Source of the DNA: Clostridia bacterium
GTDB taxonomy: Bacteria > Bacillota > Clostridia > UMGS1883
DNA length: 64,000 nucleotides
Assembly (NCBI GenBank): GCA_017414645.1
Contig: JAFQLL010000049.1
Coordinates: 32,769 to 96,768 of the forward strand
Direction of reading: 5' to 3'
Each line of letters opens with the position of its first letter. Position 1 is the first letter of the stretch. Made by a program: the position numbers. Positions 9,001 through 18,000 of the stretch are shown piece by piece.

Positions 9001-12000
9001 AGCTCGTAGTCGCCATGATTGAAGGTGCGGTAAACCCATTCCGGCAGGTAGTTTGCAGTTTCGCCATAGTTACCTACATAGCCGTTTTCCCGTGAAAGAG
9101 CACGGTGGGTTAAGGGGTAATAGCTTTCGCCGTAGGGCTTGCGGCGTATAAATTCGCCTTTGTCGTCAAGAGCCTGCACAGCCTTGCCTGTGCATACAAT
9201 GTTTACATAATCATCAGTAAAGCGGGCTGAGCGGTCGTGGTTGAAAAGGCAGTGATATAAATCAAGCTCTCTGCCATTTTCATCAAAAAGAATGTGCTCA
9301 CCTTTCCAGGGTGCAAGCCCAAGGGCCTCTTTTAAAATGAGGTCGCATTTTTCTTTGCCTATGTAGTATTTGCTTTCTAAAACGCCTAAGCCTGCCATTG
9401 CCTTCCATGCACCTTCGTAGGTGTAGTAGGTTTGGTTATATATATAGCTCTGGCGCGAGGAGGCAAAGTCGAAATTTGCCTTTAAGCAAAGCTCCCAGGC
9501 TTCCTTTTTTGTGAGGTGTTCATTAAATGGGGTAGCTAAGTAGCTGAAAAAATCGTCCTTGTTTAAAAAAGGCTTTAAAAGGTACAAGCCTTGCCCCAAT
9601 TCACCGTAATAGCCGCCCCAGTCGCTTTGGTGGGCGTTATGTAAAAGTGTTTTCGGGTTTTCAAAGTAATCTTTAACGTAAAGGTTTATGCAGTTTAAAA
9701 CAAGCTTTACTGCCTCGCATTTGTTATCAAGGGGGCAGTAGTGCTCGTGAAGCATCATTATGAAATGGCGGAATTCTTCAACATATTTTGTTATGGAAAG
9801 CTTTTCGCCTTTTCTTAGCTTTTCTAAGGATGCATTGAAAAAAGCCACCTGAGCTTTTATGTAGGCTGAGGAAAAACCGTCAATGTCTTCCTTTGTGTAT
9901 TTTGTTGAAGGCTTTGCCTTTGGGGCTTCCGGACTTGCCTGCAATGGTATGCTTGGTGAAGTAGAAGAGATGCCTTCGTAAATTGTACCCGAAACCTCTT
10001 CTAAGGTGTCGTAGGGCTCTGCCTGACGAAGAGTGAGGGTAATTTCGCTTTTACCTTTAGTGAAAGCTAACGGAACGGCTGTGGTAACATAAAAATAACA
10101 GCCCGGTTTAAAATGCCCGTAGCAAAGGTTTAAAGCTTCGTAGTCGCTACATTTTGCGTAACCTAATTGCTTGCCGTCAAGGTATAAATAAATGGGGGTA
10201 TAACTATCGCCTGAGTGAAGCTTTAAAGAAAAATAGTTCTGCTTGTAAGGGTTAGTTTTAATTTTAAAGCTCACCTCGCTTGAAAATCGCGAGGGAGGAT
10301 TGGTGGGAAGAAGGCATATTCCGCCGTTACGTAAAAGGTGCTCGCCCGTAAGGCTGTGCTCCTTTTCACTTTCACTGTTACCGAAAATAATGCGCTCAAT
10401 CATACGTTTCACCTCATAAAAATTATACCTTACAAAAGGAAATCTTTCAATACTAAAAAGGAGTTGTTTCAATTGAACAAAGTACCGAAAAGCACTTTGA
10501 AATATTTTCTTTTATTTTTGTTGAACATATGGTATAATTTATAAAAACGGGAAAGGGGCATACATTATGAAGCAAACAGGTCAGGGTGTGTTGCAGGGCT
10601 CTGAAATATTTTTTTCGTCGCCCTCGGTAAGAGCGAAAAACCTTTTTTACCATGTTTTGTGTGCAGGTCACTTTTTCTGCGACAGTGTCTATAGTGTTGA
10701 CAGAGAGCATTACGACAGCTATCTGGTGCTTCACGTAATAAAGGGAAGCCTGAGCTTTTTAAATAAGGATGGTGTGGAAGCATGTGCAAGAGAGGGCGAA
10801 ACGGTTATTATTGACTGCTACAAGCCACATTCCTACTGCACACACGACAAGCTGGAATCTGTATGGGTGCATATTGACGGATCCGACACAAAAAAGCTTT
10901 GCGATGACATAATAAATACCCGAGGGAATATTATACGCAAAAGAAACAATAACAATATAAGAGAAAGCCTGTTTAAGCTTTTCAATGTACTGGGTGGCGA
11001 AAAAAGGTTTTTTGAACCGGAAATGTCCTTGGAGGTTTACCGCCTTATTTTAGAGTTGTGGAACGAACAGGATGCACAGGGCGTGGACAAGGAAACTTCC
11101 AGGGATGGCATACAGAAGGTTATTGACTACGTTGCCCTTCATCTTAATGAGGAGATAACCGTGAAAACCATGGCGGCTATTGCTCACATGAGCGTTACAC
11201 ATTTTTCGCGGGTGTTCAAACAAAAGAGCGGCTTTTCGCCTTATGAGTATGTGCTTAACGCAAGGCTTAATACAGCAAAGGAGCTATTATTAAAAACCGA
11301 CATGTCTGTTACAGATGTTGCCTACGAAACAGGCTTTAACAGCGAAGCGAATTTTGTGTATTGCTTTACAAAAAATGAAGGGATTTCTCCGGGCAGGTTC
11401 AGAAAGAGCTGGTTTTAATGTTTTATGGTAGGATTTCTAAATTTTTGAATAGGATTTTGAAATACTAAAACCATTTGGGATGATATTATGGTGCTATAAT
11501 ACGAAAGGACGTGTAGGCATGAACTTAAAGGACCGAGAACGACTCAGATACCTTGCAGCCCACCAGATGGAGCTTGCAAATTCACAAAAGAACCTTGACA
11601 GAGTTGCTTTGTGGAAAAGGCATAACATGTGCAAGGGCGAAAGACCTGTTATACATATTGAGGTGGACACCTTTGCCCACGAGGCATTAAAGCCTAAGCT
11701 TGAGTGTGAGGACGACTTTGCAAGAAGGATTGAGTACCGCCTGCTTCACAACATGATAAACCTTGAAACCTTTGATGACGATAAGGTTATAGCACCCTAT
11801 TTCCAGACAGGCTTCCATTCATGGTTTACTCTTTTTGGTCACAACATTAAGCAGAGCATTGTAAAAAAAGAAGACGGAACAGAAATGGGCCACACCTTTG
11901 AACACATTATCGACGACTTAGGCGACGATTTTGATAAAATTCTTACCCCCAGCCAATATGGTGTTGACAGAGAAGGTACAATGCGTTATGTTGATTCGCT

Positions 12001-15000: not shown

Positions 15001-18000
15001 CCGCGCAGAAAGCCTTGGTATAAAGGGCTCTTGCAGTGTGGTGGCATTAAGGGGCATTTCAGCCTTTGTAGGTGCCGACATTGTGGCAGGGCTTAATTGT
15101 CTTGAAGCTGATGAAGAAAGGTACAATATTCTTGTGGACCTTGGAACAAACGCAGAGGTTGTGCTTTATTCTAAAAACAAGCTTTACTGCACAGCGGCAG
15201 CTGCAGGTCCTTGCTTTGAAGGCGTTAACATATCCTGCGGTATGAGCGCAACAAAGGGCGCAATATATTCCTGCACGGAAAACACCTTTCTTACAATAGG
15301 CGGAGGTGAGGCAAAGGGCATTTGCGCCACAGGGCTTATCGATGTAATTGCCCTTATGCTTGAAGGCGAATATATGGACGAAACAGGCTTTCTTGAGGAA
15401 AGCTTTGAAATAACAGACAATGTTAAAGTAACAGGCGAGGATGTAAGGCAGTTTCAGCTTGCAAAGTCCGCCATCTGCTCGGCAATATATGCGCTTGTTA
15501 AAAAGGCCGCTACAAGCTTTGAATGTGTTGACAAGGTTTATGTGTCGGGTGGCTTTTCCTCTAAAATGAACGTTGGCAATGCCTTAAGGCTTGGACTTTT
15601 GCCCATGGAAGCAAAGGGCAAAATATATCCCTTGGACAACAGCTGCCTTAAAGGCCTTTGTGAATACGCCCAAGGAAGAAACAGTGTAGAACCTCTATTG
15701 GTAAATGCCGAATATGTTGACCTGGCAAAGGATAGCTACTTCGGAGAGCAATTTATAGAAAATATGATGTTTTAACATAAAAACCGTAAGGGCTGCCCCT
15801 TACGGTTTTGCATTAATCTTCAGTTATTTCGAAAAGCTCATTTGGCGTGCAGTTGAACAAAAGACAGAGTGTTTCGATGTTTTCATAGCGGATTGATTTG
15901 GTTTCGTTGTTAACCATTTTGCTGAAATTCTGATAGCTCATACCAAGCTGCTTATATAACCAGTATTTTGTTTTACCGTTCTTTTCCAATAGCTCCAATA
16001 CTCTTAATTTAATCATAAGATATTTCTCCATAACTTATATTTTAATGAGATAATATCTTAATTTTTCTCTTTACATATAGACTAATACATTATATAATGA
16101 AAAAGTCTATAGGGAGATGGTGCTGTGATAAAGATTTCTTATACTCCGGGAAATGAAGGGAAAGATTGCTTAGGTAACGGGTTGCATACTGGTGAATTTG
16201 GAGACATAATAGAGTGTTGCTGTGATGAATGTAATTATCTGATGTGCTGTACCAATTTTGGTGGATTTCCCGAATGTGATATTTGTGAAGATGAAAAATG
16301 CCCGCGAGCAAATCAAAAATAACCCTGTTGCGTACGCAACAGGGTTATTTCATTACTTATTCCTTATTCACTATTACTTATTACCTTACAAAATAACACT
16401 GTTATTTTGTGCCCGTGCTTCCGAAGCCGCCTTCGCCGCGAACTGTGTCGGATAATTCATCCACTTCAATGAAGTTTGCTGTAAGGAAGGGGGCAATTAC
16501 CATCTGGGCAATTCTTTCTCCGTGTTCAATAGTCTGCGCCATGGTGCCGTGGTTATGAAGTGCAACCATAACCTCGCCACGATAGTCGGCATCAACAACA
16601 CCAACTTTATTTGCAGGGGCAAGGTTTCTTTTAGATGCAAGACCGCTTCTTGCATAGATAAGCCCTGCGTAGCCAACGGGCACCTCAAGGGCAAGCCCTG
16701 TTTTTATGAGCACCGTTGCATGAGGCTCAATTGTAACACTTTCGTCAAGGCATGCATACAAATCGCAGCCTGCGGCATATTCGCTTCCGTAGGTGGGAAT
16801 TGTTGCCTTGGGGTTAAGCTTTTTTATGTTTACGTTTGTCATTGTGGAATATTCTCCTTTGGGGTTTTTAGATTACTTTGATCTGGGAGCACTGCAACAA
16901 TTTTTCATTCACCGCAGCCGCAACAGTCAATACTGCCGCCTGCAATGTCCTTTCGGTCGATGTTGGCTTCCTCGCCCCAAAGAACCAGCGTGTCTGTTTT
17001 AAGGGACTGTTGTACATCGATAATGCGCTGATTGGAAGAGCCCTTGAAGCGAAGGGAAATGTCCTTCAGGCTTTCAACAAACTCGCCATCCACTAAAATG
17101 TCGATGTAAGAGAGCATTTCGTCTGTCACAGAGGCATCGCCAAGCTTTCCTGTAAGCATGTCGCTTTCGAAATTATAACCCGAGTAGCACCAAATGTCCT
17201 TTTCGGGGTAAAGCTCCTTTACCTTTTTAAGAAAAGGCACCAGTGAAGCCTGGTTGGAAGGCTCAAAGGGTTCACCGCCCAAGAGGGAAAGCCCGGAAAT
17301 GTAATCGGGAGCAAGAGCTGAGATAACCTCCTGCTGAACCTCCTCAGTGAATTCATTGCCATAGTTAAAGTCCCAGGTTTCGGGGTTAAAGCAACCCTTG
17401 CAATGATGTGTACAGCCCGAAACAAAAAGGGAAACTCGCACGCCAAGGCCATTTGCAATGTCGTGGTTTTTTATTGTAGCATAGTTCATTTTACAGCACC
17501 TCCATTACAGATGGAGAACGCGGGACTTGATTTCCTTTGTTTTGCCAACGTTCCAGAAGTTTTCGCCAAGGTAACCGCAGGTACGGCGTGTAACATTCAT
17601 TCTCTTCTGGTCCTTATTGTGGCAGGAGGGGCATTCCCACTCTAAATTATCGTTAATCATAATCTCGCCGTCATAGCCGCATTCGTGGCAATAGTCGCTC
17701 TTTGTGTTGAACTCGGCATACTGAATGTTGTCGTAAATAAACCTTACAAGCGTTTCGAGAGCGGGAAGATTGTGGCGCATGTTGGGAATTTCAATGTAGC
17801 TGATTGCGCCACCGGAGGAAATCTTCTGGAACTGGCTTTCAAACTCGAACTTACTAAATGCGTCGATATCCTCACGCACGTCAATGTGGTAGGAGTTTGT
17901 ATAGTAGCCTTTATCTGTAACATCTTCAATTGTTCCGAAGCGTTCCTTGTCGATGCGTGCAAAACGATAGCAGAGGCTTTCGGCAGGTGTGCCGTAAAGA

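Follow-up and report, generated by a model that had tools for sequence, protein, structure and literature searches.

A predicted AraC-controlled corrinoid demethylase operon of a Clostridia bacterium and its possible link to carbohydrate methyl ethers

A 64-kb stretch of genomic DNA from a Clostridia bacterium (contig JAFQLL010000049.1, positions 32,769 to 96,768; referred to as the window) carries five open reading frames (ORFs) on the forward strand at 10567-15775. They encode an AraC-family regulator, a putative substrate:corrinoid methyltransferase (MT1), a corrinoid protein (CP), a second methyltransferase (MT2), and a reductive activase of the RACo type. The proteins encoded in the window were scanned with Pfam and NCBIfam, and the cassette was compared with related loci from other genomes. 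Our reading is that these genes form an AraC-activated corrinoid demethylase operon that would remove the methyl group from a carbohydrate-derived methyl ether and deliver it to a thiol-type acceptor; to this predicted function as a whole we assign a probability of about 0.45. That the cassette constitutes a corrinoid-dependent methyl relay appears very probable, since none of the four component types is missing, the genes are tightly coupled and end at a terminator, and the set recurs in relatives.

Results

Organization and recurrence of the cassette

An earlier note on this DNA had described a four-part cassette of MT1, CP, MT2, and activase, and all of the corresponding ORFs were found where it had placed them (Table 1). 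The genes had been called translationally coupled, which is nearly exact: there is a 4-nt overlap between CP and MT2 and an 8-nt overlap between MT2 and RACo, while MT1 and CP are separated by a gap of 12 nt that includes an AGGAG motif. The true start of MT1 is position 11519, as set by N-termini and ribosome-binding sites that are conserved across 20 relatives, and the protein comprises 411 residues instead of the 412 originally given. A hairpin resembling a terminator follows directly 3' of the RACo stop codon; a terminator scan placed the same stem on the opposite strand (15800-15788).

The gene order AraC-MT1-CP-MT2, with or without RACo, recurs in uncultured gut Clostridia and is not due to chance. 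The partner genes were counted across 72 genome loci in which MT1 had been called. Within five genes of MT1, CP was present in 24, MT2 in 28, and RACo in 15 of these loci, and 40 loci had one or more of the three. Of the 27 loci from relatives at least 69% identical, 25 had at least one corrinoid partner beside MT1.

Table 1. Coordinates of the cassette and its predicted control elements in the window.
Feature	Position	Strand	Remarks
AraC-family regulator	10567..11418	+	283 aa; HTH_18 (87.7 bits), HTH_AraC, and AraC_binding (Pfam)
Predicted AraC operator	11431..11465	+	two direct half-sites, GGATTTCTAAA-N12-ATTTTGAAATAC; putative operator function
Candidate -10 elements of the cassette promoter	11483..11500	+	GATATT and TGCTATAAT; putative, from sequence reading
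MT1, divergent UroD-superfamily protein, predicted substrate:corrinoid methyltransferase	11519..12754	+	411 aa; invariant G299-C300-C301-E302
CP, B12-binding corrinoid protein, predicted methyl carrier	12767..13402	+	211 aa; B12-binding and B12-binding_2
MT2, MtaA-like UroD-family methylcobamide methyltransferase	13399..14397	+	332 aa; His227-x-Cys229...Cys309 zinc motif
RACo/RACE-type reductive activase	14390..15775	+	461 aa; [2Fe-2S] ferredoxin domain and ASKHA ATPase
Terminator-like hairpin closing the operon	15780..15809	+	13-bp stem, CTGC loop, T-run; sequence reading

MT1 is a divergent member of the UroD superfamily

MT1 had been described as URO-D-like, a claim that was to fall if the protein lacked a URO-D or TIM-barrel fold. 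Fold searches returned UroD, MtaA, and MetE, and the fold is a UroD-type TIM barrel. By sequence, the protein is barely detectable as URO-D: it scored 25.6 bits on the Pfam URO-D model (cutoff 23.9), with no individual stretch passing. No NCBIfam model was assigned to MT1, a 22-bit trace of PRK06252 being the sole signal. Neither as a sequence nor as a profile did it match any PDB chain, MtaA included, at E < 10; likewise, no Pfam or NCBIfam match to the MtaB or the MttB/MtbB/MtmB families was obtained at E < 0.01, and none to the hemE equivalog TIGR01464.

When the MT1 and MT2 families were aligned profile to profile (95.7% probability), the alignment spanned the catalytic two-thirds of the proteins. 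It places Y-G299-C300-C301-E302 of MT1 onto Y-H227-N-C229-G of MT2, and C376 of MT1 onto C309 of MT2. C301 and C376 of MT1 fall on the canonical zinc Cys positions, with Gly replacing His. UroD decarboxylases aligned with MT1 and MT2 have no Cys motifs at these positions. Conservation was determined across 116 full-length representatives that are 27-55% identical to the window protein. The G-C-C-E motif is invariant in this set, and E72, D87, D88, W262, Q268, E269, K345, and D384 are near-invariant; conservation of C326 and C376 is confined to the window's own subfamily.

The family is large. A word-indexed search yielded 2,367 sequence-cluster matches and an exhaustive search 2,060 clusters at 50% identity, 512 of them with E <= 1e-30, and relatives of MT1 occur in at least 502 species-level genomes. 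They are spread over Clostridia, Anaerolineae, and Planctomycetota and are also present in Blautia and other Lachnospiraceae; cultured carriers are Eisenbergiella tayi, Robinsoniella peoriensis, Sporanaerobium hydrogeniformans, and Neglectibacter timonensis. All sources list the family members as 'hypothetical protein' only, and no NCBIfam model covers them, in line with the earlier view that this gene set and its substrate are uncharacterized. Judged by these comparisons, MT1 represents a new, very divergent clade of the UroD superfamily with a signature of its own. A 351-aa protein without a Pfam match (family f28; L048:18564-19616, also in L058 and L062) resembles a shortened MT1 and is encoded next to genes for MT1, MT2, and GH29 fucosidases; it probably represents one more branch of the UroD superfamily.

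MT1 genes duplicate and move between contexts, with two copies occurring, for example, in Robinsoniella loci. Because MT1 diversifies, duplicates, and sits among transporters and hydrolases, we read it as the donor-side enzyme, and it is likely the substrate-specific component of the predicted relay. The known methyltransferases of the donor side (MT-I) OdmB, VdmB, MtvB, MtoB, and CdmB are UroD-superfamily proteins as well (PMC13222342). In MtaB, the zinc site that activates methanol is made up of two Cys residues and a Glu (PMC6257451). The Cys-Cys-Glu of MT1 has the same ligand composition, and a Cys2Glu metal site as predicted here could provide the kind of Lewis-acid help that an aliphatic methyl ether would need.

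We also considered that MT1 is no methyltransferase at all, being instead a co-transcribed UroD-fold enzyme such as a cofactor-free sugar-acid decarboxylase, with MT2 as the sole methyltransferase. This is hardly credible. MT1 is encoded 12 nt upstream of the CP gene in an order conserved across many species, and its Cys-Cys-Glu lies exactly at the zinc position of the superfamily's methyltransferases, where UroD has no such residues. Moreover, MT1-like and MT2-like genes are paired even where a corrinoid protein gene is missing, and a relay with a single methyltransferase would be left without a donor-side enzyme.

The corrinoid protein and the reductive activase

Proteins with a DxHxxG motif carry the methyl group, UroD-type MT-I enzymes present the donor, and members of the RACo family reduce Co(II) to Co(I) using ATP. 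CP had been identified as a B12-binding protein with such a motif, and it possesses both B12 domains (B12-binding PF02310, 96.6 bits; B12-binding_2 PF02607, 71 bits) as well as the motif itself, D99-L-H101-D-I-G104, which was invariant in 26 of 26 relatives. Its best NCBIfam matches were the MtgC and pyl_corrinoid families, both below the cutoffs. The activase was correctly assigned as a 2Fe-2S-ferredoxin-ASKHA protein: it matched RACo_C_ter (166 bits), Raco_middle (137 bits), and Fer2 (20 bits) in Pfam and has four N-terminal Cys residues (Cys36/42/45/57). It further gave an AcsV-like match of 258 bits, which is below the NCBIfam cutoff.

Two variations on this part of the cluster were observed. 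In Lachnospiraceae/Oscillospiraceae versions (L068, L076, L080, L042), a DUF2284 predicted metal-binding protein is encoded beside RACo, and in L069, L071, L051, and L076 a gene for a PocR-sensor/AraC regulator is located between those for RACo and the corrinoid protein.

MT2 is of the MtaA type, which points to a possible thiol-type acceptor

MT2 scored 180 bits on URO-D PF01208, 138 bits on PRK06252 (methylcobalamin:CoM methyltransferase; CoM, coenzyme M), and 110 bits on TIGR01463 (MtaA/CmuA), the latter two scores being below the curated NCBIfam cutoffs. The solved MtaA structure 4ay7 was matched at E 1.3e-8. With 76 bits on the hemE equivalog (cutoff 303), MT2 is not HemE. H227 and C229 were each conserved in 31 of 31 relatives and C309 in 26 of 31, and the three residues align with LHICG and PGCG of 4ay7. 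Together with this HxC...C zinc motif, the three model matches bear out the previous assignment of MT2 as MtaA/CmuA-like.

In MtaA-type enzymes, zinc activates a nucleophile, and this receives the methyl group of methyl-cobamide. In the 20 kb around the cassette, no pterin-binding/tetrahydrofolate (H4folate) methylase was found among the ORFs scanned, which comprised every ORF of at least 140 aa and several smaller ones, and no Wood-Ljungdahl or folate genes were detected in the window. The second methyltransferases (MT-II) of characterized bacterial O-demethylases are H4folate-binding enzymes (PMC13222342, PMC10418091); OdmD, VdmD, MtvA, MtqA, CdmA, and the bacterial 'MtaA' bind H4folate and have been modelled on PDB 4O1E (PMC13222342). 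The idea that the cassette has the canonical make-up of O-demethylase systems had to be abandoned on this point, as MT2 is of the UroD/MtaA type and no pterin-binding gene accompanies it. In the UroD superfamily, according to the preprint of Kountz & Balskus, His-Cys-Cys is the mark of S/Se-methyltransferases, and O-demethylases have carboxylates in place of Cys (PMC10418091). Based on the zinc site of MT2 and the lack of a folate methylase, we favour a thiol-type nucleophile over tetrahydrofolate as the acceptor and put the odds of a thiol at about even.

Since MT2 is of the MtaA type and no folate enzyme lies within 20 kb, the make-up of the cassette comes closest to that of the mlp gene clusters. 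These occur in anaerobic bacteria, combine MtaA-like UroD proteins with a corrinoid protein as well as a Ram/RACE activator, and have been proposed to act in methyl-S/Se metabolism (Kountz & Balskus 2023; PMC10418091). The cassette shares with them the use of UroD-superfamily methyltransferases instead of a folate methylase, the presence of CP and a RACE-type activase, co-directional genes with gaps of <2 kb, the absence of an H4folate methylase within 20 kb, the His-Cys-Cys of MT2, and a host that is an obligate anaerobe of the Firmicutes. However, a 'true MGC' requires at least two SCMT-like Mlps (~30% identical to MtaA/MtbA), and type 1 needs Mlp2 and Mlp3 (PMC10418091). The cassette falls outside this definition because MT1 is not SCMT-like and MT2 alone qualifies. 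In contrast to the mlp clusters, the second UroD protein is here far more divergent, with 411 aa and G-C-C-E replacing HxC; S/Se genes are absent nearby, AraC serves the cassette as a dedicated regulator, and across the family the surroundings are those of carbohydrate utilization.

A function of the mlp kind would have one of the two UroD proteins take the methyl group from a methylthio or methylseleno compound (e.g. dimethylsulfide, methanethiol, methylmercaptopropionate, S-methyl plant metabolites, or dimethylselenide) and the other handle a second S/Se partner. The cassette agrees with the mlp definition in most respects (PMC10418091), and MT2 has its His-Cys-Cys and MT1 a Cys-rich motif. 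Nevertheless, we regard methyl-S/Se metabolism as distinctly improbable, given that MT1 is no SCMT-like Mlp and has no MtaA or PDB match at E < 10. In addition, neither census described below showed sulfur or selenium genes (selABCD, glycine reductase, methionine transporters or aminotransferases) among the recurrent neighbours. The genes that do recur are carbohydrate genes, and the AraC-type regulator has an operator in the style of sugar operons.

The AraC regulator has a conserved predicted operator of its own

The spacer between AraC and MT1 is 100 nt long and contains the predicted 35-bp operator, the half-sites of which lie ~21 bp apart. The element was recognizable in all 20 AraC-to-MT1 spacers examined. 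It occurred once in the window even with 3 mismatches allowed (chance expectation 0), and in 18 loci an exact match was found once per locus, each time just upstream of MT1. As the operator is unique in the window and conserved just upstream of MT1 in relatives, we consider AraC to be dedicated to the cassette, which is what the earlier note had proposed. An AraC gene was located at most five genes from MT1 in 41 of the 72 genome loci.

Two direct half-sites in such a geometry are typical of AraC-family activator sites that abut the -35 region, and AraC is predicted to be an activator of the cassette. The candidate -10 elements sit 17-30 nt downstream of the operator, relatives have TATAAT at a similar distance, and a promoter scan returned a weak site at 11457-11484. 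The promoters of the neighbouring GH43, lyase-like, and 1139-aa genes were checked for a shared regulon. The operator was not found before any of them, and a single regulon of these genes with the cassette was rejected on this basis.

Gene surroundings in relatives and the methyl donor

In the closer relatives, an unbiased Pfam census of 119 neighbour proteins returned 143 families, none of which was present in more than five proteins. In them, the cassette behaves like a self-contained module whose surroundings vary. The neighbours that recurred in more distant relatives were sugar ABC permeases and binding proteins of the CUT1 type, regulators of the YesM/YesN type, and glycoside hydrolases (GH) of the families GH35, GH2, GH36, and GH29. 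In one locus (L010), the cassette abuts genes for FucI (1016 bits, cutoff 775), an FGGY kinase, FucU (at the cutoff), and a class II aldolase, and fucose genes are similarly arranged in L036 and L016. The comparison of gene neighbourhoods that the earlier note had suggested revealed recurrence of the cassette and, near distant MT1 homologs, recurrence of carbohydrate genes.

As a distant sample, seven contexts in the 27-45% identity range were inspected. An Anaerolineae operon (L086) is composed of genes for a binding protein (SBP), two permeases, GH36, an MT1-like protein, UroD, GH2, a GH141-like protein, and GH2, and a Ruminiclostridium operon (L091) of genes for SBP, two permeases, a GH63-like protein, an MT1-like protein, and GH36. 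Two further arrangements were UroD, MT1-like, GH127, UroD, and GH2 (L088) and GH2, MFS, an enolase-superfamily gene, MT1-like, and an aldo-keto reductase (L087). The UroD proteins in the distant contexts are of the MT2 type (up to 145 bits on the MT2 profile, with HxC motifs), indicating that MT1-like and MT2-like genes travel as a pair. The neighbour at L086:14398-16452 gave weak matches to a GH141-type beta-helix; the founder of GH141 is a rhamnogalacturonan II (RG-II) fucosidase that releases a disaccharide containing 2-O-methyl-xylose, which would be in keeping with a methyl sugar as the donor.

These surroundings suggest a carbohydrate methyl ether, from plant or other glycans, as the methyl donor, an assignment that we hold tentatively and at somewhat less than even odds. 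The conserved pocket residues of MT1, which are the eight near-invariant residues outside of G-C-C-E, are polar or acidic with one Trp (W262), as would be expected of a predicted pocket for a polyol or sugar ligand. Among the substrate candidates named in the earlier note, O-methyl sugars gain indirect support from the family-wide contexts and methoxylated aromatics gain none. The signal points to fucose- or galactose-type sugars. Glucuronidase and uronate-catabolism families were not among the recurrent neighbours, and 4-O-methyl-glucuronate is not favoured over fucose-, galactose-, or xylose-type sugars.

Several points weigh against a sugar-specific corrinoid demethylase. The window's own subfamily is without an adjacent transporter and has a heterogeneous neighbourhood; it is therefore mostly relatives with 27-66% identity that provide the link to carbohydrates, and their specificity may differ from that of the window MT1. 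Recognizable carbohydrate genes were found near MT1 in at least 18 of the 72 loci, a lower bound that does not amount to a majority. Neither CP nor RACo occurred within 8 kb of the MT1-like gene in any of the seven distant contexts, so that corrinoid dependence of the wider family is an extrapolation. MT1 keeps two or three Cys residues and lacks His, and for a Cys-rich site the published rule leans to soft S/Se ligands over oxygen. The metal site is itself a prediction, and three adjacent residues (C300-C301-E302) cannot all bind one metal. Chemically, the SN2 attack is harder on an aliphatic than on an aryl methyl ether. Finally, neither a corrinoid- or cobalamin-dependent demethylase acting on sugars nor the breakdown of 2-O-methyl-fucose or -xylose was reported in the literature that could be searched, which is no proof of absence.

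In a plant-fibre gut organism, MT1 might instead act on aromatics of the ferulate, vanillate, syringate, or polymethoxyflavone type that are derived from lignin or flavonoids, the methyl group again passing via MT2 to an acceptor. Gut O-demethylation of aromatics is well documented, the MT1 family is present in Blautia and other Lachnospiraceae, and the missing transporter in the window subfamily would fit membrane-permeant phenolics. The known aromatic MT-I enzymes, moreover, all belong to the UroD superfamily and have a corrinoid protein and an activating enzyme as partners (PMC13222342, PMC12915777). We still consider an aromatic substrate unlikely. The MT-II is not of the H4folate-binding type found in every characterized aromatic system (PMC13222342), the window contains no Wood-Ljungdahl genes, and MT1 is far from mainstream UroD proteins, being barely detected by Pfam and not matched by NCBIfam. 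Sugar transporters, glycoside hydrolases, and fucose catabolism, and not aromatic-acid genes, make up the family-wide neighbours, and the MT1 pocket residues are charged or polar instead of aromatic or hydrophobic.

Conceivably, pectin could also supply the donor for an MT-I other than MtaB, either as methanol set free from it or as its methyl ester. Methanol is abundant in herbivore guts, pectin-/lyase-like genes are located upstream in the window and in L085, and the Cys2Glu composition of MT1 parallels the MtaB zinc site. Use of methanol is nonetheless very unlikely, because MT1 has no similarity to the MtaB family and no Pfam MtaB match, the window holds neither a folate methylase nor Wood-Ljungdahl genes to use the methyl group, and methanol requires neither an ABC importer nor glycoside hydrolases, both of which recur as partners.

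Discussion

With a carbohydrate methyl ether as the substrate, the predicted relay would proceed as follows. An inducer would bind AraC on the half-sites at 11431-11465, and expression of MT1-CP-MT2-RACo would be switched on. Using ATP and a low-potential electron, RACo would reduce inactive Co(II) on CP to Co(I). MT1 would bind the methylated substrate, its Lewis-acid metal site presumably polarizing the CH3-O bond, and Co(I) would take the methyl group to yield CH3-Co(III). MT2 would then hand the methyl group from CH3-Co(III) to the final acceptor, which may be sulfide, homocysteine, or another small thiol. Such a demethylation would open the sugar to ordinary catabolism without oxygen.

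Methyl-etherified sugars are widespread constituents of glycans from plants, algae, and microbes and block normal sugar catabolism; 2-O-methyl-fucose and 2-O-methyl-xylose are found in rhamnogalacturonan II, xylans and arabinogalactans contain 4-O-methyl-glucuronate, and algal glycans contain methyl-galactoses. The cassette is a candidate for how strict anaerobes of guts, rumens, and sediments handle such sugars. In the most far-reaching version, which we consider rather doubtful, the G-C-C-E family would be the first oxygen-independent carbohydrate O-demethylase, with a corrinoid-dependent mechanism and an MtaA-like partner that unloads the methyl group onto a thiol and not onto folate. Substrates might then be, for example, 2-O-methyl-fucose, 2-O-methyl-xylose (both from rhamnogalacturonan II), or methyl-galactoses, and the products methanethiol or methionine. 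If this were true, fibre degradation in guts and sediments would be tied to cobamide demand and to the production of volatile sulfur compounds.

A demethylase for a glycan-derived sugar has been described in marine bacteria, in which a cytochrome P450 located in polysaccharide-utilization loci demethylates 6-O-methyl-D-galactose (PMC6292453). It was the sole carbohydrate demethylase found in our literature search, which yielded no anaerobic one. If the sugar hypothesis is correct, both systems would remove a methyl ether so that the sugar can be catabolized. However, the P450 is O2-dependent and yields formaldehyde, whereas the cassette is proposed to transfer the methyl group to cobalt independently of O2, and there is no sequence or structure kinship between the two.

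Corrinoid-dependent multi-component methyltransferases are already known as a kind. Among them are the aromatic O-demethylases OdmABCD/VdmABD of Acetobacterium dehalogenans, MtvABC of Moorella thermoacetica, and archaeal MtoABCD, as well as the chloromethane system CdmBCA (PMC13222342). With these the cassette has in common an MT-I of the UroD superfamily to which substrate specificity is ascribed, a DxHxxG corrinoid protein, an MT-II, an ATP-dependent activase (PMC13222342), and, as predicted here, the attack of Co(I) on a methyl-heteroatom bond. In contrast, the aromatic systems have an H4folate-binding (4O1E-type) MT-II that feeds the Wood-Ljungdahl pathway, and their hosts are acetogens or methanogens, while MT2 of the cassette is of the MtaA type and MT1 is barely detectable as URO-D and has a different metal motif. 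The methanogen systems MtaABC/MtbA/MtsA resemble the cassette in other respects: MT2 is similar to MtaA/MtbA in fold, HxC...C site, and size, CP is similar to MtaC/MtbC-type proteins, and Cys/Cys/Glu of MT1 echoes the MtaB zinc site. Unlike in these systems, MT1 is unrelated to MtaB, MtmB, and MttB, the host is a bacterium without known coenzyme M, and the activase is of the RACo type.

What is new is an unnamed, divergent UroD-family MT-I with its own signature that is paired with an MT-II of the MtaA type and not of the folate type, together with a dedicated, predicted AraC operator and an MT1 family that recurs in glycan-utilization operons across at least three phyla. Whatever its substrate, the cassette extends the recently noticed bacterial corrinoid systems with an MtaA-type second methyltransferase, raises the question of the thiol acceptor, and adds a cobamide-dependent function to fibre-degrading gut Clostridia.

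Other features of the window

The flanks of the cassette were as described in the earlier note, with a GH43 gene and a large ORF (1139 aa) upstream and dut, nrdG, and nrdD in convergent orientation downstream. The upstream flank further encodes the xylulokinase XylB (552 bits), AzlCD, a second AraC, and an alginate-lyase-like/RicinB protein, and housekeeping genes (dut, nrdGD, Sua5, TsaD, SecA, PrfB, MetK, and others) occupy the downstream flank and the remainder of the window. The view that the cassette is embedded in a hemicellulose locus therefore holds in part: the upstream flank is carbohydrate-related, but the other flank is housekeeping, the setting is not conserved, and the operator is not shared. 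XylB was given little weight because its conservation does not extend beyond the clade closest to the window (L002, L003) and because AzlCD lies between it and the cassette.

The 1139-aa ORF (7053-10472, reverse strand) is divergent from the cassette AraC gene. It had no Pfam match above threshold, apart from a faint 19-bit trace of an RGI-lyase beta-sheet, and no PDB sequence match, and may encode an unclassified glycan-active enzyme. At 3356-5458 on the reverse strand, a 700-aa protein combines an alginate-lyase-like domain with three RicinB lectin repeats and Cu_amine_oxidN1, a domain that is also present on a predicted nuclease (31316-32518). A small ORF at about 15813-16020 on the reverse strand, between the cassette terminator and dut, has a translation that resembles an XRE-type helix-turn-helix protein.

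Farther downstream, three tandem paralogous ORFs of ~740 aa (42857-45067, 45115-47358, and 47492-49717, forward strand) share 53-55% mutual identity; their products have a signal-peptide-like N-terminus and no Pfam match. On the reverse strand, a BcrAD_BadFG ATPase fused to DUF2229 and a DUF2229-like partner are encoded at 50035-51459 and 51293-54229. The pair resembles activators of the 2-hydroxyacyl-CoA-dehydratase type, and a dehydratase was not evident nearby. The mechanically called NrdD ORF (17505-20012, reverse strand) and a Wzz/tyrosine-kinase-like ORF (19822-21267, forward strand) overlap by ~190 nt at their 5' ends, and one or both of the start codons listed for them are probably set too far upstream.

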